Shown here piece by piece: positions 9,698 to 62,362 of a stretch of DNA of 64,000 bases. Source of the stretch: Selaginella moellendorffii (taxonomy: Eukaryota > Plantae > Lycopodiophyta); the NCBI RefSeq assembly GCF_000143415.4, contig NW_003314264.1, positions 2,055,710 through 2,119,709 on the forward strand. Reading direction: 5' to 3'. The position numbers were made by a program, and so were the translations under genes. The notes beneath the pieces are model-generated. The model saw only the letters and a program-made list of their open reading frames with translations, was not told the DNA's origin and ran no database searches. The number at the start of each line of letters is the position of its first letter. Position 1 is the first letter of the stretch.

Positions 9698-11299
9698 AGG
9701 GTGAAAGCCCAAAGCGTTTGTCTCCCAGACCCTGGGGGGTTTGGTGAGCTCCAAAAGTATAGTGAGGGGGAGGACTGCAGTGGAGCCAGTTTGGCCAGGA
9801 AAGGCCAGTTTGGCCCAAGAAGGCCAGACCCAGTGTTGGGTGATGAACTGACCACTGGGAAGTCCAAGACTAGAGTGAATATGGACCAACAAGCGGGGTA
9901 GCTTGGTGAAGTGTTCAAGAGCCAGCTCTAGTTCCCCCGGGAGATCGACTGGCCAATGCTCCCAGTCCAAGTGTGGGTGGCACTACCTACTTGGATACCA
10001 GGCGTGGCTCAACGGAACCTCGCTCTAAGCCCATGGCTAGAGCACCTAAAGGCGGAAGGCAGGAGAGTACCCATGTGTAAGCCACAAATTTTTCCTTTTC
10101 AATTTGCCAGCTTACCTCGCCTATCCGACCAACTCTGCCTTGGCTTGTGCTAAGTTCCCTCGCCAAGGTTCTCGCCTATGGTGCCAGCTCCTACTTGGTT
10201 TCAGCTACTTACTGCATGAGCAACGGAGTGTTAGCCATCCATCTACGGATTCCCAAATCTTTCCCAATCCCCCTCCCCGGGTTAGATTGGACTTAAGGTT
10301 CGGCTACACTCCCCGCAGGCACAAACAGCTAAGCACACCAAGCCTCCAGATTCCTAACACCCCAAGGTACCACAAGGCTTGATCATGGGACCCTCTAAAT
10401 CCCAAGCCTTGGGTGCAGCACTTGCTTCGGGACGTCGGGGCGAAACACCGTGGCCTAACGGCCCGGTATGGGTACCTCTACCCCCCCACTTTCATCCCGA
10501 AGGGAAGGCCCAAGCCCCCGGAAGGGCGAGGACCAATGAGCCACAAGGTACTCAAGTGGGGCACCACTCCACCTGAGCCGGGAACACCGCAGTCGGTTTC
10601 CCTTTCGGGAGTGGGAGCTGCTCTTGAGCACTTCCTTGGATGGCCCCTCCGGCACCAGCCAAGTCCATGCTCACTCCCACCCAAGGCCCCTCGGTCCCAG
10701 TCCCAACCTCAAGTCGGTTTGGAAGCCCAACTGGAGAGTCCCTTCTAAACTGGTTCCTGGACCTCACTATCCCTACTATACTTTTGGAACCCCCTGCAGC
10801 CCCCCCCCCCTGGGAGACACACGCTTTGGGCTTTCACCCCTTGACCCGTATTAGTATTTGGACTTAGTCTCTGGCTCGATCTCAGACCCGATTTCGGATC
10901 CGACTTCGGATTTGGTTTCGGACTCGATCTCGGACTCGATCTCGGACCCGATCTCGGGTCTGACCTCGGACTCGATCTCGGACTCGGTCTCGGACCCGAT
11001 TTCGGATCTCGGACTCCGTCTCGAACTCGGTCTCGAACTCGGACTCGAACTCGGTCCCCGAGTCGGTCTTGGACTCGATTCCGGACCCTATCTCGAACTC
11101 GGTCCTAGAGTCGGTCTTGGACTCGATCCTCGACTTGGTCCCATCCGATGAACTCTTTGTCATTTCGGTCAAGCTTTTGGGGATCCTTTAGCCTACGACA
11201 TCTCGGGGAGTCGGTTCTTTACAACTCCACCACCCATAGAAGAAGTTCGATGCCCACATCGAACGTCTCGTTTTATCCTACGACTTGTTGACCATGTCT

Positions 11300-11540
11300 C
11301 CGAGGGCATCCCCCCACTTAACGGTATGCCTAAGTTAGCCTCCCCGGCCAAGAGCCCATGACAACGGAATATAGGTGTCCCTATACTCCTCACCTCACCA
11401 CGCCCTAGTATGGGGTCGGGACTTGAACCCAGCCTTGCTTTACTAGGGGGTTGGGACTCGAACCCAACCTCCGTAGAATACGTCTACGGATTCGACATCC
11501 CCGCGGGGAGTCGGGCGTAGTGCCCTACGCCTGGTCGACC
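11300..11540 (-). ncRNA. Putative structured cis-acting RNA element (multi-hairpin, two T-loop/B-box motifs) in the B1 3' UTR
   Basis: Hairpins GGCGTAG/CTACGCC, TCCGTAGA/TCTACGGA and GGTTGGG-TTCGAGT-CCCAACC. Homologous segments with compensatory changes occur in A1, A2 and B2. Confidence 0.55.
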
Positions 11541-12008
11541 TATCCAACCCATGCTAATTAGCTTACCTTTGGCGCGCCTTCGGGTCCCAACATATTGCAC
11601 TTGCTCAACTTTGCAAATTGATATTTTTAATTGAATTTTGCATAAGTACATAGAGTTCTGCCTTGCAGAAATTCCTCCACTAGTTCTCGAGCGTTCGCTA
11701 GGTTCTCCTCCGGTTCCCATGTTGCTTCGCAATGTGGAAATCCTTTCCACTTCACATGGAACTCTCTCACCTCGCGTCCTTGTCGCTTGCTCTTGCGCGC
11801 ATTGAGGATGGCCTCGACTTCGTATTCCTCTTCCCCTTGGATAACCTCAGGTAAAGGTCTCACTTGGTCCTTGCGAAGCGGATCCTCAAAATACGGCTTG
11901 AGTAAGTTCACGTGGAACACTGGGTGCATCTTCCCCATCTCTCGAGGAAGTCGGAGTCGGTAAGCCACTTTACCGATTCGTGCCTCAATTTCATAAGGCC
12001 CCGTGAAC

Positions 12009-12060
12009 CTGCTTAAGGAACTCAAGATCAATTCATTTACAGGAATACATGCATCTTTAC
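12009..12060 (-). other. Putative spliceosomal intron 2 in integrase (52 nt)
   Basis: AG|GTAAAG...TTAAGCAG|G. Removal gives ...RKLTQRFTGPY.... Confidence 0.85.
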
Positions 12061-12478
12061 CTTTGGGTCAACTTTCGGCTGATCCCACTTGGTAGTCTGA
12101 GGTTCTTGGTGTTCAGCCACACCTTCTCCCCAGCTTGGAACTCCACATCCCGACGCTTTTGGTTCGCGTACTTAGTTTGCCTTTGTTGAGCCCGTTCCAA
12201 GGAATCCCTCACTAGATTCCAAATGTTGAGTCTTTCCGCCGTGAATGCCTCCACTGCGGGTAACTCTCCATGATACTCGGCCACGCCGAGTTCCACAGGA
12301 CCTTCAATAGCTCGCCCATTGATGACTTCCCATGGACTCACCCCGATGCTTGCATGTGGTGAGTTGTTATAACACATTTCCGCAAGTCCCAAATGACTTA
12401 CCCAGTCGGTCTGGTCTCCCGAGACATAGCATTGCAATTAATCCTCCAGCTGCCTATTCACCCTTTCCGTTTGTCCGT

Positions 12479-12524
12479 CTGTCAAGAAGTGTTAGTGCCA
12501 ACAACTTGACTTAATACCTCATAC
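12479..12524 (-). other. Putative spliceosomal intron 1 in integrase (46 nt)
   Basis: G|GTATGA...CACTAAC...TTGACAG|AC. Removal gives the canonical ...HPQTDGQTE.... Confidence 0.85.
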
Positions 12525-15500
12525 CTGTCTGTGGGTGATAGGCTGTGCTGAATTTCAACTTGGTGCGATACTGTTCCAGGAGAGTCCTCCAGAACCTACT
12601 GGTGAAGATCTTATCTCGATATGAGATGATCTCTTCTGGTCTTCCCCGCACTCGAACCACTTGTTCGAAGAACAGCTTCGCCACACCTTCCGCATCCACT
12701 TCCGTTGTGGTGGCTATGAAATGTGCCATTTTCGAAAATCGGTCCACCACCACGAATATCGCATCAAACCCCTTGCTTGGGGGGAGTCCCGTGATGAAGT
12801 CCATCGTAAGACATTTCCACGGGCGATCTGGAATGGGGATGCTTTGCAACAAGCCCCCACTAGCCTCAGTCACGGCTTTTACCTGCTGACATGTTGGGCA
12901 TGTCTTTACATAGTCTTGGACGTCCTTAGCCATATCTGGCCAATGGTACTTCCTTTTGAGTAAGCCCATTGTCTTGGGCACTCTGCCGTGTCCCGCAAGA
13001 GGTCCGTCATGACACTCTTCTAAGGCCACCTTCCTTAGTTCCCCTTCTGGAACATACACCCTCGTTTGCTTGTAATAAATGAGTCCGTTGCGTTCCGCAT
13101 AGCCCGTTTTCTCTTCCGTTGGCAGCTCATCTCTCTGGTGAGCTTCTCGCGCCTCTAGATTCCTCAGAAACACTTCCTGTGCTAGACCATCGTTCTCATA
13201 TGCTGTCCGCACATCGTCCCAGAAGGTTGCTGTTGCGCTGGATATTGCCAACCTCAAGCTCACTTTTCGACTTAGCGCATCTGCCACGATGTTGCTCTTC
13301 CCAGGCTTGTACAGAATTTCGCAATCAAACTCGGCCAAGGCATTGGCCCACCGACCTTGTTTCCCTCTTAGGTCAGGCTGTGACAAGAAGTGTTTCGTTG
13401 CCACATTGTCCGTGTAAACCTTGAAGTGTCTCCCAAGGTAGTGTCGCCACTCCTTGAGCACCTTGACCACCGCAAACAATTCCTTCTCGTGGGCAGGCCA
13501 CTTCCGTTGAGCCTTGTCCAGCTTCTTCGAGAAGAACGCTACTGGATGGTTGTCTTGCTTCAAAACTGCGCCCAACGCAAAGTCCGAAGCATCCGTTTCT
13601 ACCTCAAAGTCCTTACCAAAGTCTGGTAATGCCAATATGGGAGCCTTCCTCAACTTCCCTTTGAGGTGGACGAATGCCGCCTCGCATTCCGCTGTCCACA
13701 CCATCTTCCCTTTTCCTGTTTGGTCCGTTAAGGGCAGGGCTACTCTCGAATAGTGTCTGATAAACTTTCGATAGTAGTTGCAAAGCCCCAGGAATGCCCT
13801 CAACTCATGTACATTGGCTGGTCGCTCCCATTCCTGGATCGCTTGGACCTTCTACGGGTCCACCTTGAGCCCATCCTGGCCCACCACATGCCCGAGAAAC
13901 TTTACCTCTTGTTGAGCAAAGTCACATTTGCTCTCTTTAGCATACAGCTTGTGTTCCCTTAGTTTCTCAAACACCTTCGCCAAGTGTTCGGCATGCTCCT
14001 CTAGCGTTTCGCTATAGATCAGGATGTCGTCGATATAGACGACCACGAAGTGATCCAGATAGGGTACAAAGATGTGGTTCATTAGCGCCGAAAACGTTGC
14101 CGGCGCATTACATAGCCCGAAGGGCATCACCAGAAACTCAAAGCTCCCATACCTCGTTCGACAGGTTGTCTTCTCGACATCTTCCTCGGCTACCCTGATC
14201 TGGTAGTATTCTGACCTTAGGTCAATCCTCGAGAAGTATTTTGCCTTTCCCAACCTATCGAACAGGTCCTCAATCCTTGGCAAAGGGTACTTGTTCTTCT
14301 TTGTATACTTGTTGAGCAACCGGTAGTCTATGCACATGCGCATAGATCCATCTTTCTTTTTCACAAATAACACCGGTGCCCCATACGGCGACTTGCTCAA
14401 CCTAACATACCCTTTGTCCACCAACTCCTCTAGTTGGCACTTGAGCTCCTTGAGTTCTTTTTCGTTCAAACGATAAGGGGGACGAACCACTGCCTCAGCA
14501 CCCTCGACCAGCTCAATCTTATGTTCTATCGGTCGTGCTGGGGGTAGCCCCGCCGGTAGCTCTTCCGGCATGGTATCCTGGAATTGGTCCAACACCCGCT
14601 GGATCACTAAAGGTACTTCTTCCATTTCTGTCTTTTTGTCACTCTTCACCGAGAGTAAGCACAAAAAGGCCGCCTTAGTTCCTTTAGTGAGTTGTCCTCT
14701 CGTTGACACCAGGTTTAAGCAAGAATCTTTGGCCTTGCTTTGCCCTACCTTTAGATCTTGGGCCTCCACCCTAGATCTTCTTCTTTGGGCATTCGCCAGT
14801 ACCACAAGGTTTCTACCTTGACCATGCAGGGCTACCACGAATCGATTGAACCAGTCCATTCCGAAGATCACATCAAATCCCGCCATGTCCAACACGGTGA
14901 AATCCATGTCCACCTTCCAAGTCCCCACTTCGACTCTCGCTTGTCGAAGTACCTCATCGGTGCTTTGGCTACCTTGAACAAACTCTATAGTCCTTGGTTC
15001 ACCTAGCCGCTGCACCGTTAGTCCGGCTTGCCGGACTATGTTTGCAGCCACAAAATTATCCGAAGCACCCGTGTCAATAAGAATCTTAACAAAGCTACCT
15101 CCGAGCTTCCCTCGGAGGGCTAGTAGATGTTGCGAACGACTCTCTAACAAAGTTGCTCGTGTAATGAGTAACTTTGAGTTAGGGACTGGATCACATACCT
15201 CATTTTGGACTTCACCCGACTTGATGGCCATATTGGCTCTGGCCTTCTTCGGGTAGGGACTTTCCCTCGAGAAGTGTCCCGCTTCACCGCAGTTGTAGCA
15301 TACGTTGTTTCCCACGCTGCTATATGACTTGACCTTCTTATCCGTGGGTTTGTCTCTTTTTGCTTGACTCCCCCACGTACTCGCTCGCTGGCCCCCGGAT
15401 TTGCCTTTCCGGAACCCCGAGGACTCATTCTTAGAGAAACTCCTCTTGAATTTCCCTCTGCTAAACGTTCCCCTTGGTTTGGCCCCTTTGCTGAACGTGG

Positions 15501-18500
15501 ATCCCGACCCCGTCGTGTTCCCCTTTCGCAAGTTATCGTTGAAATGCACCTTGATGGCTGCATCCAACGCTTCCTTGTAGTTGGTCGGGTTCCACCGCAT
15601 TACTTCGCCGCGAGCCCAGGTTTGCAAACCTGATATGAAGGCATGGAACGCATCCATATCCCCCATGTCCGTGACAAGTATCCTCTTTGCCATAAACCCA
15701 TTCACATACTCCTGAATGGTTCCGGTCTGCTTCAGCCTACTCAGCTTGTCCCTTAGGTGCAGAGTAGCATTCGGAGGAACGTAAGTTGCGCGGATCCTCG
15801 CCTTCATCATTTCCCAAGTGGCCACCGGTCCTTCGTTGGCCTCCGTTGTTCTCCACCAAGACTTGGCATTATCTGCCAAGTATGGTTTTGCACATGGGAC
15901 CTTTTTCGAGCTCGGTAATCGCAACGCTCGGAAGTAGTCCTCCATATCGTAAAACCAATCCTCCACCACCTTATAGTCGTTCACTCCCTTGAAGACCGGT
16001 GGGGGCTTTGGTTTGTACTTGGGAACTGCCTGAGGGACTGATTCCACTTCGGTCTGTTCGACCTTGTCTGGTTTTGCCTCAGTCCCTGCCGAAGGGTCCG
16101 TACCTTCTGCGCTGCCAGCATCCGCAGTCTTTCGCTTTTTCTTCTGCTTCTCGTCACGCTTTAGCTTGCGTATGAGAGTCTCTAGCAAGGCATTGGTCTG
16201 TGCCAATTGTCCTTCTAGAACATCCAATCGAGCCTTGGACGACCGAACCTCACCACCAGACTCCTGTTTGGAAGTTGCCTCACTGGAGTCCTCCTCATGC
16301 AAGGATTCCTCATCCATCGCCTCCTGTTCGACCGGGGGCTCCAGCTCTGGAGGAGGTTCCGTCTCTGCCTGGGTTCGCTTACGTCCTGCCCTTGCCATCT
16401 CCCAGCAATCCGCCTCTATCCTTCGCTAGAACTGAGGAAGAGGCTCCGATACCAAATTGTAAGCCACAAATTTTTCCTTTTCAATTTGCCAGCTTACCTC
16501 GCCTATCCGACCAACTCTGCCTTGGCTTGTGCTAAGTTCCCTCGCCAAGGTTCTCGCCTATGGTGCCAGCTCCTACTTGGTTTCAGCTACTTACTGCATG
16601 AGCAACGGAGTGTTAGCCATCCATCTACGGATTCCCAAATCTCTCCCAATCCCCCTCCCCGGGTTAGACTGGACTTAAGGTTCGGCTACACTCCCCGCAG
16701 GCACAAACAGCCAAGCACACCAAGCCTCCAGATTCCTAACACCCCAAGGTACCACAAGGCTTGATCATGGGACCCTCTAAATCCCAAGCCTTGGGTGCAG
16801 CACTTGCTTCGGGACGTCGGGGTGAAACACCGTGGCCTAACGGCCCGGTATGGGTACCTCTACCCCCCCACTTTCATCCCGAAGGGAAGGCCCAAGCCCC
16901 CGGAAGGGCGAGGACCAATGAGCCACAAGGTACTCAAGTGGGGCACCACTCCACCTGAGCCGGGAGCACCGCAGTCGGTTTCCCTTTCGGGAGTGGGAGC
17001 TGCTCTTGAGCACTTCCTTGGATGGCCCCTCCGGCACCAGCCAAGTCCATGCTCACTCCCACCCAAGGCCCCTCGGTCCCAGTCCCAACCTCAAGTCGGT
17101 TTGGAAGCCCAACTGGAGAGTCCCTTCTAAACTGGTTCCTGGACCTCACTATCCCTACTATACTTTTGGAACCCCCTGCAGCCCCCCCCCCCTGGGAGAC
17201 GCACGCTTTGGGCTTTCACCCCTTGACCCGTATTAGTATTTGGACTTAGTCTCTGGCTCGATCTCGGACCCGATTTCGGATCCGACTTCGGATTTGGTTT
17301 CGGACTCGATCTCGGACTCGATCTCGGACCCGATCTCGGGTCCGACCTCGGACTCGATCTCGGACCCGATTTTGGATCTCGGACTCCGTCTCGAACTCGG
17401 TCTCGAACTCGGACTCGAACTCGGTCCCCGAGTCGGTCTTGGACTCGATTCCGGACCCTATCTCGAACTCGGTCCTAGAGTCGGTCTTGGACTCGATCCT
17501 CGACTTGGTCCCATCCGATGAACTCTTTGTCATTTCGGTCAAGCTTTTGGGGATCCTTTAGCCTACGACATCTCGGGGAGTCGGTTCCTTACACCATGGG
17601 GCTCGCGTAGGCCCACGGTGTTTCGAAATGTTGTCCCGGAGTCCCAAATGGAGAAAGGAGGAAGAGCAATCCTCTAGTGTGGTGACTAAGGATACAGTCA
17701 CATGGTAAGAAAGTCCCGGAGGACCATGGGACTTAGTGGTCGGGCCTGTGGGCCTTGATCTAGTGGCAGTGGCGGTGAACATGGCCATGGACAAAAAAGG
17801 GACTTGGTAGGAACTGACAAAGGGATATTGGGGAAGGCTATTCCCCATGTCTGTGGGCATCCTAAGGATGCTAAGGAGTGGATCTGGGTTGACCACTCAT
17901 GGATGGATGGCCCAGTTTTGGAGAGACGGGATTGTGATGCAAGTGGTATTGGACCACTAGTGTGGCAAAGGTGAATGGGTATGGCCTTAGCGTAACAGGT
18001 TGCTATGTCGGTGATATCTTTGAGTGTCGGTCATGGGATCGGACACGTGGAGCACTTGGACCAAGTGCAAGGGTTGAGTGGCGGGGATGCCATCCTCAGG
18101 GCTAGCAAGCCCAAGTCTGAAAAAGGACTTATGGAGGTTGTGAGTGAGACTCCTCCAAGTGGTCAGAGGTGTGGTTAAGTGACTAAAGTAGAATGGAAAA
18201 ATTAATCGCTTACAATTTGGTATCAGAGTTGTTCATTAGTTCGACTTTTATTGGTGCTCAAATATATTACCATCGATATTGGCATCAGAAGGTCCTAGGA
18301 GTGGGCCTATCCTTGAGGAGTAGCATGTCAAGAGGATATGGCTCTCCACTCAAGTTCATGCGTGAACTTGGGCGCGATGTGGTGGATAGAAAAGGGGCCA
18401 TTAAGGGAACGACTTTGGGATCTTGGGAACAGTATAAGGGTTTCCTCAGAGAGTTGAGGAGTTGATCTAGATGAGTGTTTGACTTAGCAAACTGGCTGAT

Positions 18501-20714
18501 ATAGTTGTGGTAAACAATTACAGTTGGGATCACGGGAAAGATGCGGACTCTAGAACAATAAAGGAGTCACAAGATTACCCTTATATAGTTGAGGCTGGTA
18601 CTCATAAAATTGAGACCAGAATTAATGACTGTGAAATGTCAAATACGGATGAGGACACGAGTCCTTGAAATGGTGGTTGGGGCTACCTTTAAATAAATGC
18701 TGGAACAACCCAAGGAGTTAGGGGTGTACTTAAAGATGAGTTGCTATTCTCATCACATGGACAAATAGTTCTAAGGGGCAAAGGTTAGCCCCAAGAAAAT
18801 CATCAAGTGTCGGAGTAACACTTGCAAAGATTGTCCTTGTGAGTAGGATATGAATACAAGAAGTTGTATTTTAGCGAGTTGGCACCTTGAAGACTAAGAC
18901 CTCGCAAGTTGTTGGATTAGCAAAGTCCAAAATGCTAAATGACTCAAGTGGAGTCAGGGAATGGTCCTAAGGGATTGGTTGAAGCATTTGGACTGAGGTG
19001 TATGGTGCCTCATGAGGTATGGGGAGGATCATAAGATCCAAGTACGAGAACAGTAGATATCTCATTGATGGCAAAATGTGCCATACCAAAGTTGTGGGAA
19101 AGATGTTCCTAGAAGAAAGCAACTTTGGCCTAGAGTTGGGTGCAAACACTATGGTGCGATGCTAATGGATAGTTAGCATAAGGAACAACCATATTGGTCT
19201 TGGCAAAGACCTAAACACTAAAAATAATGTCATAAGGATAGGCTCGTGGGGCCAATGGTGTAGAGACACCAAATGTGCCAAGGTGAGATACCTTGAGGTT
19301 ATGTTGATGGGTTCATAAGAACCCCTTGCCAAGACAATCCCAACGGAAATGGGAATGGCATAGCCTAAGCTGGAAGGCATGCGGTTAGAGTGTGGTGACC
19401 CAAATAATGATGGAGGTATGGAAGCACCAGCAATGAGTTGTAGAACTTGATAACTATGAGGCAACTAAGCAAAAGGTGCGAAATAATTAGTTAAATTGGT
19501 AGAAGGTAACTACCTATGACTTCTTATGCCGATAAGGAAGTTAGATATACCCTTATGGGGGAGAAATTGCTTACGTTGTGAAATAGTAAGTCAATGTCGT
19601 AAAGGGAATGCTCATTGTCAAAGAAGGCCATCATTGGGACACCCAGACACTCTAAAACACGCATGGAATGTGAAGTGTTTAGTGTCGCATTCAATGCGAA
19701 CCGGGCCCGGTCGCACAGGGCATTGTAAGCGACTAATTTTTCCATTCTACTTTAGTCACTTAACCACACCTTCGACCGCTTGGAGGAGTCTCATTCACAA
19801 CCTCCTTAAGTCCAATTCAGGACTTGGGGCTTGCTAGCCCAAGAATGGCATCCATGCCACTCATCGCTTGCACTTAGTCCAAGTGCTCCACGTGTCCGGT
19901 CCCAAGACCGACACCCAAAGGCACCACTGACATATCGGCCCATTACGCTAAGGCCATGCCCATTCACCTTTGCTGCACTAGTGGTCCAATACCACTTGCA
20001 TCACAATCCCGTCTCTCCAAAACTGGGCCATCCGTCCACGAGTGGTCAACCCAGATCCACTCCTTAGCATCCTTAGGATGCCCACAGACATGGGGAATAG
20101 CCTTCCCCAATATCCCTTTATCAGTTCCTACCAAGTCCCTTTTCTGTCCATGGCCATGTTCGCGAACACTACCACTCGATCAAGGCCCACAGGCCCGACC
20201 ACTAAGTCCCATGGTCCTCCGGGACTTCCTCACCATGTGACTGTATCCTTAGTCACCACACTAGAGGACTGCTCTTCCTCCTTTCTCCATTTGGGACTCC
20301 GGGACAACATTTCGAAACACCGTGGGCCTACGCGAGCCCCATGGGTACTCTCCCGCCTTCCGCCTTTAGGTGCTCTAGCCATGGGCTTAGAGCGAGGTTC
20401 CGTTGAGCCACGCCTGGTATCCAAGTAGTGCCACCCACACTTGGACTGGGAGCATCGGCCAGTCGATCTCCCGGGGGAACTAGAGCTGGCTCTTGAACAC
20501 TTCACCAAGCTACCCCGCTTGTCGGTCCGTATTCACTCTAATCTTGGACTTCCTAGTGGTCAGTTCATCACCCAACACTGGGTCTGGCCTTCCTGGGCCA
20601 AACTGGCCTTTCTTGGCCAAACTGGCTCCACTGCAGTCCTCCCCCTTACTATACTTTTGGAGCTCACCAAACCCCCCAGGGTCTGGGAGACTAACGCTTT
20701 GAGCTTTCACCCTC

Positions 20715-21390
20715 TCAGACTCGAACTTGGACTCAGACTCGGACTTGAACTCGGACTCGGACTCGGACTCAGACTCGGACTCAGACTCGGACTCGGGCTC
20801 GGGCTCGGTCTCAGCCTTGGCCTCGGTCTCGGTCTCGGTCCCAATCCCGGTCTCGGTCTCGGTCCCGGTCTCGGTCCCGGTCTCGGTCTCGACCTCGGAC
20901 TCCATCTCGAGTCCTTCTCGGACTCCATCTCGGACTCCATCTCGGACTCCGTCTCGGTCCATCTCAGACTCCATCTCGGACTCCATCTCGGACTCCATCT
21001 CGGACTCCATCTCAGACTCCATCTCGGACTCCATCTCGGACTCTGTCTCGGTCCATCTCGGACTCCATCTCGGGTCCATACTCGGACTCCGTCTCGGTCC
21101 ACCTCGGACTCCATCTCGGACTCCATCTCGGACTCCATCTCGGGTCCATCTCGGACTCCATCTTGGACTCCATCTCGGGTCCATCTCGGACTTCGTCTCG
21201 GTCCACCTCGGACTCCACTTCGGGTCCATCTCGGACTCCATATCGGACTCCATCTCGGACTCCACTTCGGGTCCATCTCGAACTCCATATCGGACTCCAT
21301 CTCGGACTCCACTTCGGACTCTATATCGGACTCCACTTCGGGTCCATCTTGGACTCCAACTAGGGTCCGCCTCGGACTCCATCTCGGACA
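20715..21390 (-). repeat. Expanded tandem array in the A2 3' LTR
   Basis: GGACTC/GGTCTC 6-mers and GGACTCCATCTC 12-mers. Confidence 0.9.
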
Positions 21391-23024
21391 CTTCCACGTA
21401 TCATGTGTTGGTCCTTTTTGGGTCCCTTTTTGGAGCCTTGCTTATTGCTCGCTTCATGCTCGCTCCTTGAGCACTTTGTTGGGAGTTCCACTCCCGCTCT
21501 TGACCTTCCAAGTCAGAGCTTTTAGTCCAAACGTGTTACACTCGTTTGGGCTTTCGCTTCGGCCACTACCACGTGGCACCCTTTCTGGCTCCACTTTGGG
21601 GCCTAGGGATTTTGTGTTTCACAACTCCACCACCCATAGACGAAGTTCGATGTCCTCATCGAACGGTAAACCATTTTATAAAGTAGCACCCGCATATGTC
21701 ACCATTTCCATCCTTGGCCCCTAGCCAATATTTGTCAATGGTTGGACATTGAAGGCTCACCATGCCTTCTCCATATTCATTAATGGTTCGACACCAAAGG
21801 CTCACCATGCCTTGCCCATCCTCTAAGGAGGATAGTCTCTCCAACTTAGAGACTCACTTGACCACCTGGGGTGGTTTGCTCCTTTTTATCGGTTTAGTTC
21901 TCGCTAAACCCATTAGAGACACCCTCTCTAACTCAATTCCACTACTCATTCTTGAGTAGTCACAGATTCCATTAATCTGCCTTTGCACTTTGGAATGTTT
22001 ACTCTTGACTTTTTGGAGTCAATTTCCTAGGTGTCTCCGACACCTTGCCTTGCACATTTTGTGCAACTCCACTTCCCCTCCTAGAAAGTTCTCTACTCTA
22101 GGGCACCCTCATCCTCCTTTCTATTTTTGGGCCACCATTAGCATTACGTTCCATTTATCATTATTTGTGCTAGGGCTGTCCACAGCTCTATCTTTTGGCT
22201 ACTTAGTTGCTCCCTCACTTGGAACCTTTCCTTTGCCAAATTGGAGCACTTGGGAATCCATCCTTGGAAGTCCACTTCTTTTTCCGCAATCCGTTAGCAT
22301 CAAACACATTAGTGTTCCTTGGCTAACTTTGCCACTTGGATTCTTTTCAATGGATTCCACGGCCCTATCTTGGGCACTCGTCTTTTGCTCCTATCCTTGG
22401 ATTGTTGCACCAAGCAACATAGGATCATTACCTCCTTCCTTGAGGTATTCTTTTGGTTCCATAGCAAAGGATCTGCTTTGCCCAGACTAGGGTGTTCACC
22501 CCTAGTAAGTCTCCCCACTGTTCTAGGCTCTCTTCCTAGCCCAACCTTGTGACCCACCCATGGGCCTGTCTCTAGAGACTATTTTCTTGAACTCATAATA
22601 CCATTGTATTGTAGTAGTTCATTTCCCTTAGGTGTCCTTCTCACTTAGTCACCTTGACCAAGCCACACCTTTATCAATAGTTCAAATCAACACTTTGAAT
22701 TAGGAATCATATTCCTTAAACCAAACAAAGACTTTGTCTTTGTTTAACCACAAGATCACCTAGTGATCTCATCTTGACCCCTTAATAGGTCTATCAATAG
22801 GAACTAGGTCTTCCAAACCCTTCTAAGTTGTTGACTATGACCCTGGGGGCATCCCCCACACTTGGCGGTGCGCCCAAGCCAGCCCTTCCGGCCAAGGATC
22901 CATAGCAATTGAGACTTTAGTGTCCCCATTTCATTCACCACGTTCTTGGTGCCCTTTGCACCAAAGTGTTCAAGTTAGATATGCCGAGCTTTCACTCTAA
23001 GCAATCTAACCGTGCATCACGACT

Positions 23025-23250
23025 CCGAGGCATCCCCCGTTTGGCGGTGTGCCCAAGCCAATCTCCTCATTGAGAGTCCATGACCACCGAAATATGAGTG
23101 TCCTCATATTCCAAACCATCACCACGCCCTAGTGATTTGGGACTCGAACCCAAGCACTAGAGGGTTGGGACTCGAACCCAACCTCCGTATATGCATCTAC
23201 GGATGGCATCCCCTAGGATGCCTGGCGTGACTCTCCACGCCGGTGCACCA
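23025..23250 (-). ncRNA. Structured T-loop element, A2 copy
   Basis: Two GGGTTCGAGTCCC hairpins plus GGCGTG/CACGCC, GGCATCC/GGATGCC and TCCGTA/TACGGA stems. Confidence 0.55.
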
Positions 23251-26200
23251 ACTTTTACTCAAAGCGCGCTATATATCACAGCTTAGGAACCTAGTTCCTC
23301 CACACTGCCAAGTCCTCTCACTTGACAAGTCTGTGATCATGCATGGACTCCTCCATGCTTGGCCCTATGGCCCACCCCTTTTGAAGTTATCACTTTCAAC
23401 TAGGGTATTTGTTCCCCTAACTTGCCAATCTCACTTAGCAAGTCTTCTGACCACTGTAACATGGTTTCTACACAAGCGTGAAAGCCCTTGATCATCGACT
23501 TTCGTTCAAAGCCCTCTCTTTGAACACTCAGGAACTATTTCCCTAACCTTGATAGCTTTGCCTCATGGCAAGCTTTAAGACCATGCTTCTGCTGCGCCAC
23601 TCTGATTTCACGCTTTCTTTGAACCATTTACGCTTGGCCTTTCTAGGTACTAAGCTACCTAGAATCGTCTTTGGGAACTTTGAAGGAACTCCGTCCCTTA
23701 GCTTGCTAAGGTTTCCTTTTTCGCAAGCTTTCTAGTTGCCATATAGTCTAATATGGACTATTCCATATTTTAGACTCTCCATGGCATCACGGTTGCTAGC
23801 AACAACACCCTCGAGCCCCCACTTGATTCTCCACTCCCAACTGGCATAATTACTCTTGGTTATGCCCTTCAATTCCTATGGTTTGGTTCTATCCCCTTAC
23901 TACTTGCTTTTGGCTTCACACCTTTCCTTCGGTCATTCTCCTCCCGACTAGGAGGATAATTTTGCACTTTCTATCATGCCTTAGCAAGTATTCTTAGGGA
24001 TGAATCTACCCAATAGCCTAGGGAGTGGTTCCTCAATCCAGGTATGCTCACCCTATAATCCCACACACCGGGATTACGTTGTTGCTTATGGGCCCTTATA
24101 TGCCCATCACTAACCTTGCCAAAATTCCATTTTTGGCTTTGTCCAATTCGAGTAGACAGTCTTCTCCTGTCTCCGCCACCTTGGACATTTGGATAGCACC
24201 TTCTATCCATCATTCGCTAAAGACTTAGTCCCTTGGGCCTTATCTATTGCCCTCGCAACATCAAACACCACCTCTTGGTGTTCTAGAGTGTTTGGGTGTC
24301 CCAATGACGGCTTCCTTGACAATGAGTATTTCCTTTTATGACATTGACTTATTATATCGCAACATAAGCAACTTATCCCCCGTAAGGGTATATCCAACTT
24401 CCATATGCCATTAAGAAGGCTTGGGTAGCTACCTTCTACCCGTTTAACCAATTATTTTGCACCTCTCGCTTAGTTGCCTCATAGTTGTCAAGTCCTACAA
24501 CTCATTGCTGATGCTTCCACACCTCCACCATTATCTGGGTCACCACACTCCAATTGCATGCTCTGCAGCTTAGGCTATGCCATTCCCATTTCCATTGGGA
24601 TTCCCTTGGCAAGGGGTTCTCATGAACCCACCAACATAGCCTCAAGGTATCACACCTTGGCACCTTTGGTGTCTCCACACCATCGGCTCCACGAGCCTAC
24701 CTCTATGACACTTCTTCTTTATGTCTAAGTCTTTGCCAAGACCAATACCGCTCTTTCTTATGCCAACCATCCGTTAGCACTGCACCATAGAGGTCACACA
24801 CAACTTTGTATCAAAGTTGTTTTCTTTTGGGAACACCTTTCCCACGACTTTAGTATAGCACATTTTGCCATCGATGAGATACCCTCTATTCTCATCCTTG
24901 GATCCTATGGTCCCCTCCATCCTTTGTGGGGTACAACACACCTCAATCCAAATGCTTCCATTAGTCCTTTAGGACCATCCCTTGACTCTACTTGAGTCAT
25001 CCAGCAGTTTTGGACTTGGTTAATCCACAGAACCGTAAGGTCCTACTTGTCGGGCACTAGCTCACTGGAATACACTTCTTGCATTCATGTCCTCACTCAC
25101 AAGGGTTATTTTCACAAGTGTTACTCTGACATTTGATTTTGTTCTCTGGGGCAACCTTTGCCCCTTAGGACTACTTGTCCATGTGATGAGAGTACCAACT
25201 CATCTCTAAGTACACCCCCCAACTCCTTGGGTTGTTCCAGCATTTATTAAAGGTAGCCCTGGCTACCATTTCAAGGACTAGCGTCCTCTTCCGTATTTGA
25301 CCTCCCACAGTCATTATTTCTGGTCTCACATTCATGAGCACCAACCTCAACTATATGAGGATAATCTTGTGACTCCTTTATTGCTTTGGAGTCTTTATCT
25401 TTCCCGTGATCCCAAATATAGTTGTTTACCACAACAATATTAGCCAGTTTGCTAAGTCAAACGCTCATCTGGACCACATCCTCAACTCTCTGAGGAAAAC
25501 CATATACTGTTCCCAAGATCCCAAAGTCGTTCCCTTACTGGCCCCTTTTCTATCCACCACATCGTGCCCAAGTTCATGCATGAACTCGAGTGGAGAGCCA
25601 TGTCCTCTCGACGTGCTACTCCTCAAGAATAGGCCCACTCCTAGGACCTTCCGATGCCAATATCAATGGTGATATACTTGAGCACCAATAAAAATCGGAC
25701 TAAGGAACAGCTCTGATACCAAGTTGTAAGCGACTAATTTTTCCAATCTACTTTAGTCACTTAACCACACCTTCAACCGCTTGGAGGAGTCTCATTCACA
25801 ACCTCCTTAAGTCCAATTTAGGACTTGGGGCTTGCTAGCCCAAGAATGGCATCCATGCCACTCATCGTTTGCACTTAGTCCAAGTGCTCCACGTGTCCGG
25901 TCCCAAAACCGACACCCAAAGGCACCACTGACATATCAGCCCGTTACGCTAAGGCCATGCCCATTCACCTTTGCCGCACTAGTGGTCCAATACCACTTGC
26001 ATCACAATCCCGTCTCTCCAAAACTGGGCCATCCGTCCACGAGTGGTCAACCCAGATCCACTCTTTAGCATCCTTAGGATGCCCACAGACATGGGGAATA
26101 GCCTTCCCCAATATCCCTTTGTCAGTTCCTACCAAGTCCCTTTTCTGTCCCTGGCCATGTTCGCGAACACTGCCACTCGATCAAGGCCCATAGGCCTGAC

Positions 26201-26719
26201 CACTAAGTCCCATGGTCCTCCGGGACTTCCTCACCATGTGACTGTATCCTTAGTCACCACACTAGAGGACTGCTCTTCCTCCTTTCTCCATTTGGGACTC
26301 CGGGACAACATTTCGAAACACCGTGGGCCTACGCGAGCCCCGTGGGTACTCTCCCGCCTTCCGCCTTTAGGTGCTCTAGCCATGGGCTTAGAGCGAGGTT
26401 CCGTTGAGCCACGCCTGGTATCCAAATAGGTAGTGCCACCCACACTTGGACTGGGAGCATCGGCCAGTCGATCTCCCGGGGGAACTAGAGCCGGCTCTTG
26501 AACACTTCACCAAGCTACCCCGCTTGTCGGTCCGTATTCACTCTAGTCTTGGACTTCCCAGTGGTCAGTTCATCACCCAACACTGGGTTTGGCCTTCCTG
26601 GGCCAAACTGGCCTTTCCTGGCCAAACTGGCTCCACTGCAGTCCTCCCCCTTACTATACTTTTGGAGCTCACCAAACCCCCTAGGGTCTGGGAGACGAAC
26701 ACTTTGGGCTTTCACCCTC

Positions 26720-27298
26720 TCAGACTCGAACTCGGACTCGGACTCGGACTCAGACTCGGACTCGGACTCGGACTCGGACTCGGACTCAGACTCAGACTCG
26801 GACTCGGGCTCGGGCTCGGTCTCAGCCTTGGCCTTGGTCTCGGTCTCGGTCCCGGTCCCGGTCTCGGTCTCAGTCCCGGTCCCGGTCTCGGTCTCGATCC
26901 CGGTCTCGGTCTCGGTCTTGATCTCGGTCCCGGTCTCGGTCTCGACATCGGACTCCATCTTGAGTCCTTCTCGGACTCCATCTTGGACTCCATCTTGGAC
27001 TCCGTCTCGGTCCATCTAGGACTCCATCTCGGACTCCGTCTCGGTCCGTCTTAGACTCCATCTCGGGTCCATCTTGGACTCCGTCTCGGTCCACCTCGGA
27101 CTCCATCTCGGACTCCATCTCGTGTGCATCTCAGACTCCATCTCGGACTCCATCTCGGGTCCATCTCGGACTCCGTCTTGGTCCACCTCGGACTCCACTT
27201 CGGGTCCATCTCGGACTCCATATCGGACTCCATCTCGGACTCCACTTTGGGTCCATCTCGGACTCCAACTAGGGTCCGCCTCGGACTCCATCTCGGAC
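26720..27298 (-). repeat. Tandem array in the A2 5' LTR
   Basis: Same units as the partner LTR with a different copy number. Confidence 0.9.
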
Positions 27299-28522
27299 AC
27301 TTCCACGTATCATGTGTTGGTCCTTTTTGGGTCCCTTTTTGGAGCCTTGCTTATTGCTCACTTCGTGCTCGCTCCTTGAGCACTTTGTTGGGAGTTCCAC
27401 TCCCGCTCTCGACCTTCCAAGTCAAAGCTTTTAGTCCAAACGTGTTACACTCGTTTGGGCTTTCGCTTCGGCCACTACCACGTGGCACCCTTTCTGGCTC
27501 CACTTTGGGGCCTAGGGATTTTGTGTCTCACAAGCATTAGATAAGGCCCAAGGGACTATGTCCCTAACGAATGATGGATAGGAGGTGCTATCCAAATGTC
27601 CAAGGTTCTGAAGATGGGAGAAATCTGTCTACCCGATTTGGACATAGCCAAAAATGGGATTTTGGCAAGGCTAGTGATAGGCATATAGAGGCCCATAAGT
27701 AGCAACATAAATCCCGATGTATGGGATTATAAGGTGAGCATGCTCAAATTAAGGAACCACTCCCTAAGTTATTGGGTAAGTTCATCCTTATGAATACTTG
27801 CTAAGGCATAGTAAAAGGTGCAAAGCTGTCCTCCTAGTCTGGAGGAGAATAACCAAGGGAAACATATAAGGCCAAAGGGCAAGTAGTATTGGGATGGAAC
27901 GGAACCATAGAAATTTAAGGACATAACCAACGGTGGTTATGCAAGTTGGGAGTGGAGAATCAAGAGAGTGCTCAAGGATGTTACTACTAGCAATTGCAAT
28001 GCCATGGAGAGTCTAAAATATGGAATTACCCATGTTAGACCATGTGGTGAGTAGGGAGCTTGCAAAGGAGAAGCCTTAGCAAGCTAAGGAACAGAATTCC
28101 TTGAAGGTTCCCAAAGACAGATAAGTACATAGAAAGCCAAGTGTAAATGGTTCCTAGAGCACGCGAAATCAGAGTGGCGCAGCAAAAGCGTGGTCTTGAT
28201 GCTGGCCATGAGGCGAGACTATCAAGGTTGGGGAAGTAGTTCCCTAGTGTTCAAAGAGAGGGCTTTGAATGAAAGTTGATGATTAAGGACTTTCACGCTT
28301 ATGCATAAACCATGTTATGATGGCCGGATGACTTGCTAAGTGAGATTGGCAAGTTAGGGGAACAAATCCCCTAGTTGAAGGTGCTAACTTCAAAGGGGTG
28401 GCCCATGGGGCCGAGCATGGAGGAGTCCATGCATGATCACAGACTTGTCATGTGAGAGGACTTGGCAGTGCGGAGGAACTAGGTTCCTAAGCTGTGATCT
28501 ATAGCACACTTTAAGTACATGT

Positions 28523-28750
28523 TGGTGCACCGGCGTGGGGAGTCACACCAGGCATCCGATGTGATGCCATCCGTAGATGCATATACGGAGGTTGGGTTCG
28601 AGTCCCAACCTTCTAGTGCTTGGGTTCGAGTCCCAAATCACTAGGGCGTGGTGATGGTTTGGAATATGAGGACACTCATATTTCGGTGGTCATGGACACT
28701 CAGTGAGGAGACTGGTTTGGGCACACCGCCAAGCGAGGGATGCCTCGGAG
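28523..28750 (+). ncRNA. Structured T-loop element, A1 copy
   Basis: GGTTGGG-TTCGAGT-CCCAACC at 28590-28610 and CTAGTG..TTGGG-TTCGAGT-CCCAA..CACTAG at 28613-28644. Confidence 0.55.
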
Positions 28751-30334
28751 TCGTGATGCACAGTTAGATTGCTTAGAGTGAAAGCTCGGCATATCTAACT
28801 TGAACACTTTGGTGCAAAGGGCACCAAGGACGTGGTGAATGAGATGGGGACACTAAAGTCTCAATTGCTATGGATCCTTGGCTAGAAGGGCTGGCTTGGG
28901 CGCACCGCCAAGTGTGGGGGATGCCCCCGGGGTCATAGTCAACAACTTAGAAGGGTTTGGAAGACCTAATTCCTATTGATAGACCTATTAAGGGGTCAAG
29001 ATGAGATCACTAGGTGATCTTGTGGCTAAACAAAGACAAAGTCTTTGTTTGGGTTAAGGAATATGATTCCTAATTTAAAGTGTTGATTTGAACTATTGAT
29101 AAAGGTGTGGCTTGGGCAAGGTGACCAAGTGGGAAGAACACCTAAGGGGAATGAGATATGTCAATGCTATGGCATAGTAAGTCCAAAGAAAGTAGTCTCT
29201 ATAAAAGATCCAAGGGGGGGTCTCAAAAAGTTGGGCCGTGATAGAGCCCACGACAGAAAATGTTAAAGAGACGTACTAGGGGTGAACACCCTCTGGACTT
29301 GGCAAAGCAAAGTGTTTGTTATGGAACCGAAAGGAAACCTCAAAAATGGAAGTAGCGATCCTATGTTGCTGGGGGCGACAATCAAGGATAGGAGCAAAAA
29401 GCTAGTGGCTAAGAAAAGAGCCATGGGAATCATGGGAAAGAATCCAAATGGCAAAGTTAGGCCGAGAACACTAATATGTTGGGTGCTAATGGATTGTGGG
29501 AAAGGCAATATTTCCCTAAGGATGGATTCCCAACTGCTTCAATTTAGCAAAAGTGGATGCTCTAAAGGGGGGAGCGGTAAGGTGGCCAAATAATAGGGCC
29601 GTGGGCAGCCCTAACACCAATTATGATAACTAGAACTTAGTGCCAAAGTTGGCACGATATCGAAGAGAGGATGATAGTACCCTCAAGTAAAGAACTTCCT
29701 AGGATAGGGAAGTGGAGTTGCACCATGTGCAACACAAGGTGTCAGAGACACCTAGGAAATTGACTGTGAGAAGTCAAAATTAAAAGTTCCAAGTGCAAAG
29801 GTTATGTTATGGAATCTGAGACTACTCGAGAATGAGTAGTGGAATTGAGTTAGAGAGGGTGTCTCTACCGAGTTTAGCGGGAACTGAACCAATAAAAGGG
29901 AGCAAACCACCCTATGTGGTCGAGTGAGTCTCTATGTTGGAGAGACTATGCTCCTTAGAGGTTGGACAAGGCATGGTGAGCCTCCGGGGTCAAACCATAG
30001 ACAAATATTGGCTGGGTGACATGGTAATACCTACGGGTGTTACTTTATAAAAGGGTTTACCGTTCGATGAGGACATCAAACTTCGTCTATGGGTGGTGGA
30101 GTTGTGAGACACAAAATCCGTAGGCCCCAAAGTGGATCCGGAAGGGCGCCACGTGGTAGTGGCCGATGCAAAAGCCAAACGAGCATAACACGTTTGGAGT
30201 AAAAGCTCCGACTTGATAGGTCGAGAGCGGGAGTGGAACTCCCAAAAAAGTGCTCGAGGAACAAGCACGAAGTGAGCAATAAGTGAGGCTCTAAAAAGGG
30301 ACCCAAAAGGACCAACACATGACACGTGGAAGTG

Positions 30335-30806
30335 TTCGAGATGGAGTCCGAGATGGACCGAGACAGAGTCCGAGATGGAGTCTGAGGTGGACCGAGACGG
30401 AGTCCGAGGTGGAGTCCAAGATGGAGTCTGAGATGGAGTCCGAGGTGGAGTGCAAGATGGAGTACGAGATGGAGTCTGATGTGGAGTCCGAGATGGAGTC
30501 CGAGATGGAGTCCAAGATGGACCGAGATGGAGTTCGAGATGGACCAAGACGGAGTCCAAGATGGAGTCTGAGGTGGACCGAGACGGAGTCCGAGATGGAG
30601 TCCGAGATGGGCCAAGACGGAGTTCGAGATGGAGTCCAAGATGGAGTCTGAGGTGGACCGAGACGGAGTCCGAGATGGAGTCCGAGATGGACCAAGACGG
30701 AGTTCGAGATGGAGTCCAAGATGGACCGAGACGGAGTCCGAGATGGAGTCCGAGATGGAGTCCGAGAAGGACCCGAGATGGAGTCTGAGGTCAAGACCAA
30801 GACTGG

Positions 30807-30837
<31 letters not shown>

Positions 30838-30921
30838 GCCGAGGCGGAGGCCGAGATCGAGTCCAAGTCCAAGCCTGAGTCCGAGTTCGAGTCCGAGTCT
30901 GAGTTCGAGTTCGAGTCTGAG
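30335..30921 (+). repeat. Tandem array in the A1 3' LTR
   Basis: GAGATGGAGTCC units, with higher-order duplications. Confidence 0.9.
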
Positions 30922-33125
30922 AGGGTGAAAGCCCAAAGCGTTCGTCTCCCAGACCCTAGGGGGTTTGGTGAGCTCCAAAAGTATAGTGAGGGGGAGGACT
31001 GCAATGGAGCTAGTTTGGCTAAGAAAGGCCAGTTTGGCCCAGGAAGGCCAGACCCAGTGTTGGGTGATGAACTGACCACTAGGAAGTTCAAGACTAGAGT
31101 GAATATGGACTAACAAGTGGGGTAGCTTGGTGAAGTATTCAAGAGCCGGTTCTAGTTCCCCTGGGAGATCGACTGGCCGATGCTCCCAGTCCAAGTGTGG
31201 GTGGCACTACCTACTTGGATACCAGGCGTGGCTCAACAGAACCTTGCTCTAAGCCCATGGCTAGAGCACCTAAAGGTGGAAGGTGGGGAGAGTACCCACG
31301 GGGCTCGCGTAGGCACACAATATTCCGAAATGTTGTCCCAGAGTCCCAAATGAGGGAAAGGAGGAGGAGCGGTCCTCTAGTGTAGTGACTAAGGATATGG
31401 TCACATTGTGAGGAAGTCCCGGAGGACCATGGGACTTAGTGGTCGGGCCTGTGGGCCTTGATCTAGTGGCAGTGGCAGCGAACATGGCCATGGACAAAAA
31501 AGGGACTTGGTAGGAACTGACAAAGGGATATTGGGGAAGGCTATTCCCCATGTCTGTGGGCATCCTAAGGATGCTAAGGAGTGGATCTAGGTTGACCACT
31601 CGTGGACGGATGGCCCAGTTTTGGAAAGACGGGATTGTGATGCAAGTGGTATTGGACCACTAGTGCGGCAAAGGTGAATGGGTATGGCCTTAGCGTAACA
31701 GGCTGCTATGTCAGTGGTATCTTTGAGTGTCGGTCATGGGATCGGACATGTGGAGCACTTGGACCAAGTGCAAGGGTTGAGTGGCGGGGATGCCATCCTC
31801 GGGGCTAGCAAGCCCAAGTCTGAAAAAGGACTTATGGAGGTTGTGAGTGAGACTCCTCCAAATGGTCGGAGGTGTGGTTAAGTGACTAAAGTAGAATGGA
31901 AATATTAGTCGCTTACAACAAGCTCAAAACTTACTAAATATGGAATGTCCCTAGATTGTGAATTTTGACACAGGACGAACACCATTGTGTTCAGGCCGAT
32001 CTCTACATTCCGTAGATATGCCAAATGAGCAAATCTGAACACTTTCCATAAATAGCATTTAGGACCGAAATGAGACTAACACAAAGGGCATGATAGCGAG
32101 GGTGTTTGGCTGACACGGTAAGCTATTATCTAGCAATATTGACGGACCAATCTCAATACGCGAGGGTTCTTGTCATTAGCAAGTGCAAGACAAAATGAGA
32201 CAGGAACTCCTTACGGGGCTAAGTATGCTTAGCTAATAACACGTAAGAATTCCGTCCTTATGGTCGTTTGGTCTAAGTACACTCGAAATGCCTAGTTAAC
32301 TCTACTAGCACAAGAGGGACTAATAAAGGGTCCAGCAATACTGACCTCCTGCCATCGTGGCAGTAAGGTAAGAGTGTTCGTAAGGACTGGCCAACAGATA
32401 ACTTTCGATACCCGAAGTCACATTTGTGACACTTACTCTCTTGATACCCTACCCCTCAGGTCAAGCCTAGCCGGAGCACACTAAACCCTTGCCAGATATC
32501 AATCAACATGTGGTGTGATTCTCTAGCCAACAAACAGAGTCGGATTCGAGACCTCTTTGATACCAAATGTAAGCTCCTAAATTTAGACTTCCCGAGAAGT
32601 CACCCAGCCCAGTACTATTCAAACCCAAGAACGCTCAACCTTAAATATCGCAAGACCCTTAACCCATTGGAAAAGGGGGTGCACTCTTTATTCATAGGCC
32701 TTTTTCTTCTATATTTGAACCTTTATGGATCGCCTCTCGAATCGTTCTTTTTAGTTGCTTACATCAGTCCCCTAAATAGTTCCTAAGTACATACCACTGT
32801 CCCCACCGATTTTCAAAGGAGTGAATAACTATAAAGTGATGGATGATATGGGGGATTACTTTTGAGCATTACAGTTACCAAGCTCAAAAAAGGTCTCATA
32901 TACAAAACTATATTTAGCAGATAATACTAAATTTTGGTGAAGAACAACAAAGGTAAACAAAAGATTGGTGGCCACTTAAGAAGTGATGAAAGCAAAGATC
33001 CACACAATCTATATTCCTTTGAATGCTACTTTGCACCTAAGGGATGAGATAAGTAGGTTAAAGGAAACATGAACCATTCAAAAATATGAATATTCTAGGA
33101 ATATACTCCTATGTGCTCCTAAAAA

Positions 33126-42442: not shown

Positions 42443-42977
42443 GTTACCTGATGGTTTGCCTCCCAAATGTAGAATTTAGCATGGGATTGACTTAGTTCCT
42501 AGAGCTACTCCTTATCAGTGGCAACCAACTCATACTAGTCCCACTGAAGATGAGGAGATTAATAGGCAGTTTGGTGAATACCTTTGAAAAAGGTGGTTAC
42601 GGATCAGTAAGTCTCCTTGGGCTACTCCCGTGGTGATGGTCAAAAAGAAAAATGGTACATGGCATCTTTGCGTAACTACAAGGGATTGAATGATAAGACA
42701 GTAAAGAATATGTTCCCAATCCCTCGCATTGATGATTTGCTCAATTGTCTTCATGGTGCTCAATATTTTTCGAAGATTGATTTGAGGCAAGAGTATTATC
42801 AGATTTGTGTCAAGCCAAAGGATGTTCTGAAAACTGCATTTTGGACAAGGACAGGTCATACAAGTTTTTGGTGATGCCATTTGGTTTTACAAATGCTTCT
42901 GCAATTTTTTAGAGATTGATGAATCAAGTTCTACAACCTTACTTGGGAAAGTTTGCAATTGATTATTTTGATGATAT
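42443..42977 (+). pseudogene. Ty3/gypsy reverse transcriptase fragment of another family
   Basis: LPDGLPP, SKSPWATPVV, FPIPRIDDLL..AQYFSKIDL, VMPFG and YFDDI across frameshifts. Confidence 0.85.
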
Positions 42978-44053: not shown

Positions 44054-44124
44054 AGGCTAAAGTAAAGGTGGTTGAATAAATGAGGTAAGCTAACAAATTG
44101 GAAAGGAAAACTTTATGACTTATA
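44054..44124 (+). mobile_element. Decayed terminal remnant of a family-B LTR
   Basis: gaggtaagctaacaaattggaaaggaaaactttatgacttata resembles 42399-42442. Confidence 0.6.

Positions 44125-60245: not shown

Positions 60246-62362
<2,117 letters not shown>

Follow-up and report, generated by a model that had tools for sequence, protein, structure and literature searches.

SM1-Galahad of Selaginella moellendorffii is an LTR element of about 7.5 kb with TG..CA ends, LTRs of more than 1 kb that carry poly-G tracts of 11–25 nt, a Met primer site, a first ORF of 1295 aa (3885 bp) that spans CCHC, protease, RT, RNase H and core integrase, and two short downstream ORFs, the last of which holds the chromodomain (PMC3350952). 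No RNA element, partner element or intron is named in that paper. The same species also houses Helenus, a non-autonomous LTR element with a tRNA-derived Pol III promoter whose boxes A and B lie in the LTR, and the available text on it states that how non-coding LTR elements keep their dependence on a partner is not known (PMC10886601). Structured signals that act in cis are described in other retroelements and in RNA viruses. In the available sections of PMC12786077, the RTE of IAP and the MTE of MusD are presented as structured 3′ export elements, the MTE with a pseudoknot and kissing loops, while the available part of PMC5932395 puts the porcine endogenous retrovirus packaging signal between the primer site and gag. 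Recruitment of brome mosaic virus RNA3 to the sites of replication requires the box B bulged stem-loop, which still functions after being moved (PMC5869524, in the part available); box B is also reported to mimic the tRNA T stem-loop, going by a title cited in PMC5723415. Two other papers cited here, likewise available in part, are PMC2864245 and PMC5086612.

The window, which is the whole 64 kb stretch of DNA analysed, contains a coding LTR element (B) and a non-coding one (A). The whole B1 copy (10076-17593, minus strand) measures 7518 bp, has LTRs of about 1136 and 1148 bp that are 99.1% identical, and is flanked by a CATGG target duplication; in size, LTR length and TG..CA ends it agrees with SM1-Galahad, and its G runs of 11, 11 and 12 fall in the published range. 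It is a Ty3/gypsy element with gag, a CCHC knuckle, protease, RT, RNase H, integrase and a chromodomain, and its primer binding site (16443-16454, minus strand; 25710-25721 in A1) is presumably of the initiator-Met type. This assignment to initiator tRNA-Met is supported by PMC3350952. The first ORF runs from ATG 16398 to TAA 12511, again 1295 codons, with its Pfam domains in the order published for SM1-Galahad and an internal stop in this copy, whose gag-pol is broken by in-frame stops. Two short ORFs likewise follow, with the chromodomain (Chromo PF00385, E 6e-17) in 11633-12004, and in B they are exons. B fits SM1-Galahad, as a match of features and not of sequence; its best protein relatives have 47–50% identity over most of the query.

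The A family is of a different character. A1 (19724-27532, minus strand) is about 7.8 kb long with LTRs 95.0% identical, the longest sense frame in its internal part is 89 codons, and between A and the two B ORF pieces tblastn found no match; target duplications are present. A LARD is a long non-autonomous LTR element with a non-coding internal region, and A resembles elements of this type in its long, well-folding non-coding internal part, intact LTRs, primer site and polypurine tract (PPT); it is unlike them in that what its internal part has in common with a named coding partner is pinned to one structured domain. The copies are nested (9069-31918), with B1 in the 5′ LTR of A2 and A1 in the A2 internal part, and further A-type LTR pieces lie at 1-1352 and 42976-44056. 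The LTRs of both families also contain tandem arrays based on hexamers, for example at 10860-11140, 20710-21390 and 30330-30920, which are about 70% alike between A and B.

With these hexamer repeats excluded, blastn of whole B1 against whole A1 returned eight matches, among them four strong islands. The longest non-repeat match is the structured element that is the subject of this report (207 nt, 74%, E 8e-25); the others are the pre-PPT hairpin with the PPT (48 nt, 92%; 11224-11264, minus strand, in B1), the LTR end with the primer site (47 nt, 85%) and a second partial unit of A (69 nt, 77%). The remaining matches are three short ones at LTR ends and one of 22 nt at E 0.6. The sequence-only reading had held that the surrounding A and B sequence does not align, but matches between the two extend to the primer-site end, the hairpin ahead of the PPT and the hexamer repeats of the LTRs. 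Primer-site and polypurine-tract ends are known cis-acting ends. Since the other shared islands are of this nature, the element is most likely cis-acting too. It is retained by A, the non-coding partner, as is expected of a packaging signal, which trans-mobilised partners keep. Just before the PPT, at 11245-11264 and 21645-21664 (both minus strand), an 8-bp hairpin has a stem common to A and B and a loop that differs.

The four copies reported from the sequence alone were recovered with all of the noted motifs in place and all in element-sense orientation: B1 at 11296-11545 (minus strand), downstream of the pol stop and ahead of the PPT, within the 3′ UTR of coding B; B2 at 40987-41236 (plus strand), inside a 5′-truncated B element (39917-42442); A1 at 23021-23254 (minus strand), inside the non-coding element; and A2 at 28519-28752 (plus strand). 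In their alignment 151 of 251 columns are invariant. The placement upstream of the PPT holds closely for B, where the element ends about 75 nt before the 3′ LTR, and loosely for A, where the distance is about 1.4 kb. Between the element and the 3′ LTR of A lies the second partial unit, which comprises the linker and the P6-P9 region and lacks the T-loops (22828-22950, minus strand, in A1; about 28823-28945, plus strand, in A2), and model R1 run on the window finds four full and two partial matches.

The element of about 250 nt is predicted to be a linear chain of about nine hairpins with no cloverleaf, in the order palindrome, P1, P2, P3, P4 with T-loop 1, P5 with T-loop 2, TGGTG linker, P6, P7, P8 and P9. 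In B1 (all minus strand) the 8-nt palindrome GGTCGACC occupies 11533-11540, its A1 counterpart being GGTGCACC at 23242-23249. P1 (11514-11531) would have 7 bp and a purine-rich tetraloop, and P2 (11493-11513) differs between A and B in sequence and loop with the stem retained, as had been noted; the 7 bp given for this second stem in A are, from the A2 sequence, really 6 bp and a variable loop. P3 (11470-11490) is the TCCGTA/TACGGA stem with a loop of 8–9 nt. P4 (11449-11469) is a 7-bp stem that carries T-loop 1 (G-UUCGAGU-C), and P5 (11403-11448) consists of an 8-bp lower stem, an internal loop and a 4–5-bp upper stem that carries T-loop 2 (G-UUCRAGU-C). After the conserved TGGTG linker (11396-11400) comes P6 (11366-11389), with 10 bp and an invariant GACA loop, and then P7, P8 and P9 (11302-11350), of which P8 has 6 bp and a conserved 8-nt loop. 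The stems named in the sequence-only reading are all present, but the last of them is not the end, as three further hairpins lie beyond it. In all four copies the linker and the P8 loop could join through 5 bp, a candidate pseudoknot that has no covariation. A closing helix formed by the palindrome with the TGGTG linker was set aside as unsupported, as it would have 3–4 bp and is absent from the pairings common to all four copies. Fold z-scores are -4.1 for B1 and -6.1 for A1, with none of 200 shuffles as good; the whole internal region of A folds well, so that strong folding is not special to the element in A and folding energy alone proves little.

The element carries a pair of T-arm hairpins. 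Both loops are exact 7-nt tRNA T-loops, GUUCRAGUC with the closing pair, and eight of eight loops conform to the T-arm type (7 nt, UUCRANY, with a closing G-C pair and about 5 bp of stem), their own stems measuring 4–10 bp. The pattern GTTCRANNC has 33 plain matches in the 64 kb; eight are closed by at least 4 pairs, and these eight are precisely the two loops of each copy, compared with a mean of 0.7 and a maximum of 4 closed matches in 200 block-shuffled windows. The LTR hexamer repeats hold near matches to the loop letters (6 of 17 read AGTTCRAGTCC) and form no T-arm hairpin. A whole tRNA or cloverleaf was considered and rejected: ARAGORN finds no gene, there is no Rfam match and the folds are linear chains, so that the T-arm alone is copied. 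The comparison with Rfam that had been proposed gave four matches in the window, all of them weak and all away from the element. Of the earlier packaging or tRNA-mimic reading, what fits is a conserved sense-strand RNA structure in cis, and what does not is mimicry of a whole tRNA. GGTTCRAGTCC also matches the B-box consensus, as B-box and T-loop share the same letters, but the Pol III promoter suggested on this ground fails for want of an A-box (TRGYNNAR) upstream of loop 1 in four of four copies. The dimer palindrome is weakly supported. The A and B versions are both self-complementary, it is present in all four copies and its self-duplex is worth about -14 kcal/mol; against this, it lies outside any predicted loop, 8-mer palindromes are common by chance (1.4 per 250 nt in the window), and a double change preserves a palindrome one time in three.

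Comparison of the copies bears on whether the predicted stems are maintained. Over 53 pairs in four copies, 98.1% of the 212 cells pair and 4 break, whereas 35–50% of cells pair in slid controls; the paired cells include 18 with a one-sided change. Two-sided changes occur at 7 of the 53 pairs (two in P1, one in P2, two in P6 and two in P8). The cells paired and the covariation score beat 500 of 500 shuffles, and the count of two-sided pairs is matched by 58 of 500; these figures are to be read with the structure having been drawn from the same four sequences, with the four rows being really two families and with the two-sided changes being nearly all one A-versus-B contrast. The T-stems are nearly invariant, with no two-sided change, and P4, invariant in the four copies, gives no covariation signal. 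Changes that keep a pair through G-U outnumber those that break one, which points to the sense strand as the one that folds. Conservation in excess of the surroundings is seen within A, where A1 and A2 are identical at 214 of 226 positions in the element (95%), against 1966 of 2400 (82%) over the rest of the aligned internal part (p 8e-8), a likeness that may include conversion as A1 is nested in A2; B1 and B2 show no excess (226 of 241 in the element vs 929 of 1010 in coding sequence, p 0.42). The conserved island between A1 and A2 (about 22650-23450, minus strand) is about 800 nt long at 90–98% identity, wider than the part shared with B, and holds further hairpins and the second unit without T-loops.

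A and B are both highly repeated families: of the contigs in one DNA run, 5725 mapped on 0.3 kb of A (A1) and 21,324 on 1.8 kb of B, contig number not being copy number. On A1, 40 of the 41 variants above 3% were examined, as unphased variants in contigs whose depth dips at variable sites. Both T-loops vary only by CpG-type changes, at 5–8%, other CG sites varying at 3–11%. The first T-hairpin, earlier called invariant, is so in the four copies but not in the family, as one stem change from U-A to U-G (23166) is found in about 60% of A-like contig depth. Thirteen variants of at least 15% fall within the element, of which 10 are unpaired, 2 keep a pair (this one in P4, and a P8 mismatch of A1 replaced by a pair) and 1 breaks a pair (in P6 at 30%, 23093). 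If P2 is given 6 bp, a length settled on once the data were known, the excess of unpaired variants has p 0.011; at 7 bp, p is 0.11.

Relatives of the element were sought in viral, metagenomic and prokaryotic collections, none of them a plant genome collection. In viral contigs, matches of a loose twin-loop pattern were estimated at 2200 loci; among the 125 obtained, tblastn and blastn linked none to B or to the element. A strict pattern gave three loci, all in tRNA clusters. The exact 21-nt hairpin has no occurrence in the prokaryote genomes, the metagenome scan, by the strict twin-loop pattern, yielded 31 loci and no full homolog, and three distant Ty3/gypsy loci (37–38%) have no T-arm hairpin. 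Model R1 run on 162 loci found T-hairpin fragments only, in 37 of them. One short metagenome contig (L139, 984-1119, minus strand) has tandem 30-nt repeats, each a T-loop hairpin of up to 7 bp. Fourteen of the 31 metagenome loci are gammaretroviral gag-pol sequences (Gag_p30 E 2e-97), which we take to be porcine ERV-like (among L129-L157), with two to five tandem 38-nt units between the primer site and gag, where the porcine endogenous retrovirus packaging signal is likewise put (PMC5932395). Each unit folds into a stem with a bulge and a 7-nt apical loop that in most cases is the same T-loop, in loci picked by a search pattern that selected for likeness; the leader hairpin (L141, 2824-3010, plus strand, and 13 like loci) recalls in shape an acceptor-plus-T-arm minihelix. 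The leader is like the element in having tandem hairpins with a GGG-UUCGAGU-CCC tip in retroelement RNA, but differs in that it is a 5′ leader of near-identical units in which the model scores a 17-nt hairpin only, at 11.6 bits. The likeness is an analogy, not homology. T-loops in a retroviral leader were not found described in the literature searched, largely outside subscription journals, and the 37-bp repeats in the available part of PMC5932395 are LTR repeats, distinct from the 38-nt leader units.

Brome mosaic virus box B is, like the element, an internal cis-acting stem-loop with a tRNA T-loop and no whole tRNA, and it selects RNA for replication; it differs in being a single loop of an RNA virus, bound through protein 1a, where the element has two adjacent loops among nine hairpins in an LTR retrotransposon and a putative role. 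RTE, MTE and SPRE of mammalian ERVs are also cis elements of LTR retroelements that act post-transcriptionally and are structured or motif-based; they are mammalian, RTE and MTE are linked to NXF1, and no T-loops are described for them in the available text (PMC12786077; for SPRE, PMC8579622), while neither Rfam nor sequence comparison gave a match for the element. Helenus, Ajax and Cassandra (TRIMp3) have tRNA-like letters in LTR retroelements, and the S. moellendorffii family has the same primer-site start; as far as the available descriptions go, their tRNA part lies in the LTR of elements of a few hundred bases, whereas here it is internal in elements of 7.5–7.8 kb, doubled, without an A-box and present in coding B as well. 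The element is real, likely functional and undescribed in the literature searched, which included a word search of PMC13570524 that gave no hits and lay mostly outside subscription papers and Repbase notes. Its kind is known, a cis-acting retroelement RNA and a T-arm mimic, but it is no member of a described family.

The integrase frame of B1 shifts twice, at two GT..AG segments (both minus strand): intron 1 of 46 nt (12479-12524) and intron 2 of 52 nt (12009-12060). One contig of run X15, which is probably RNA, skips exactly both, and these introns account for the two additional short ORFs in the published SM1-Galahad. B2 retains intron 1 and most of intron 2, intron 1 is spanned by a DNA contig with one gap letter, and no joint falls at either intron among the 15 of 53 joints examined in contigs on B. 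We infer that B copies come mostly from unspliced RNA and that a whole integrase needs splicing. Introns in SM1-Galahad were not found described in the literature searched, again largely outside subscription papers, and the plant LTR elements named with introns in the available parts of PMC12786077 and PMC6317226 are only Ogre and EVADE (and BARE1). At 11670 the spliced contig comes to its end, and X15 has no depth over the element, though a contig end cannot show a transcript end. An 83% A+T stretch (11611-11640, minus strand) at the final stop codon (11627-11629) lies upstream of the element and is a candidate early poly(A) region, from which early polyadenylation before the element can be hypothesized. 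Raw RNA reads numbered 9 and 3 on the 3′ 1.8 kb of B and 0 on A (9.2 million records each), too few to weigh and, for the zero on A, no test; in those few that cover the element the first mate falls on the element-sense strand, an orientation that would mean antisense RNA if the commonest stranded protocol was used.

In our judgement the chances are about even that the element acts as an RNA signal for sorting full-length genomic RNA into virus-like particles. B Gag/Pol, or a host T-arm-binding factor together with them, would take element-bearing RNA into particles for reverse transcription, docking on the T-arm hairpins much as happens at box B of brome mosaic virus; the palindrome may contribute to the pairing of two RNAs. 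A would keep the element because B Gag/Pol, or a host T-arm factor with them, needs it. Retroviral packaging signals are mostly near the 5′ end, which counts against this reading, as does the fact that the 3′ elements of IAP and MusD are presented as export signals (PMC12786077, available sections). With A-B internal sharing cut down to one folded domain of 200–250 nt, the question of particle entry becomes directly testable; if packaging is right, retrotransposons would join RNA viruses in T-arm mimicry, and the two integrase introns naturally reveal which form of RNA is copied. More speculatively, spliced B mRNA, required to make a whole integrase with chromodomain, would end at the AT-rich stretch without the signal and so remain uncopied, and genomic copies may keep both introns because the spliced mRNA lacks the signal. 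The wider proposal, that twin T-arm mimics past an early poly(A) site exclude spliced integrase mRNA and admit the unspliced genome and the gene-less parasite, and that T-arm mimicry is recurrent in LTR retroelements and independent in the gammaretrovirus leader, is put forward as doubtful.

Could the element instead serve to export or stabilize unspliced genomic RNA, like the RTE of IAP or the MTE of MusD, perhaps via a factor that handles tRNA? Its 3′ position between pol and the PPT would suit this, and the introns kept in B DNA copies imply that genomic RNA must leave the nucleus unspliced. tRNA export, however, needs a whole L-shaped tRNA with free ends, which the element does not have, and A keeps the element with no intron known in it. 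In the available text of PMC12786077, the RTE and MTE are structured as the element is, the MTE pseudoknot having a possible parallel in the 5-bp linker-loop pairing, but plants lack the NXF1 route that these two use, and the export of plant LTR element RNA is said not to have been studied directly. On balance we consider export or stability a doubtful explanation and packaging the better supported one.

The packaging reading also has to be weighed against the idea that what A and B have in common is a recombination relic of co-packaged RNAs, the hairpins being those of generally structured RNA and the T-loop incidental, maybe kin to the LTR hexamer repeats. That A folds well throughout, that the LTR repeats hold near matches to the loop and that conversion may contribute to the likeness of the nested A1 to A2 would agree with a relic; but at 74% identity with indels, stems retained in 98% of cells and loops that are fixed would be unexpected, the LTR repeat matches form no T-arm hairpin, and the other A-B islands are known cis-acting ends, all of which makes it unlikely. 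Still less probable is a part in RNA processing or reverse transcription, in which the P5 minihelix would be cut by RNase P/Z-type enzymes, the loops modified (pseudouridine 55, m1A58) or primer tRNA docked. P5, as 8+5 bp capped by a T-loop, has a suitable shape, and the available text of 10.1101/202747 has TRMT6/61A methylating GUUCRA in 7-nt-loop hairpins of human mRNA, which counts for modification; a cut, however, would destroy the genomic RNA of non-coding A, which has no other use for it, and no variant above 3% occurs at either A58 position in the contigs on A1, so that there is no sign of a misincorporation hot spot. Finally, that the two GGTTCRAGTCC motifs are DNA B-boxes binding TFIIIC as promoter or insulator is very unlikely, as tRNA-derived Pol III promoters are known in non-autonomous LTR elements but Helenus keeps both boxes, in the LTR (PMC10886601, available text), where the element lacks the A-box, and as a DNA site does not predict one-strand flanking stems kept by two-sided and G-U changes and leaves these covarying stems unexplained.

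Several other features were noted in the window. At 42441-42981 and 32824-33087 (both plus strand), tblastn picked up pieces of a further Ty3/gypsy RT and of a related gag, and two host-side ORFs have no protein relatives found. The region 34072-39473 (plus strand) holds frames of 399 and 464 codons without Pfam domains, the latter also without database relatives, together with a NIF-like phosphatase frame (E 8.5e-6), and is perhaps another mobile element. An F-box-like frame was recognized by eye at 50689-51054 (minus strand), and a kinase gene with short introns, CIPK/SnRK3-like by eye, lies at about 60130-62330 (plus strand).
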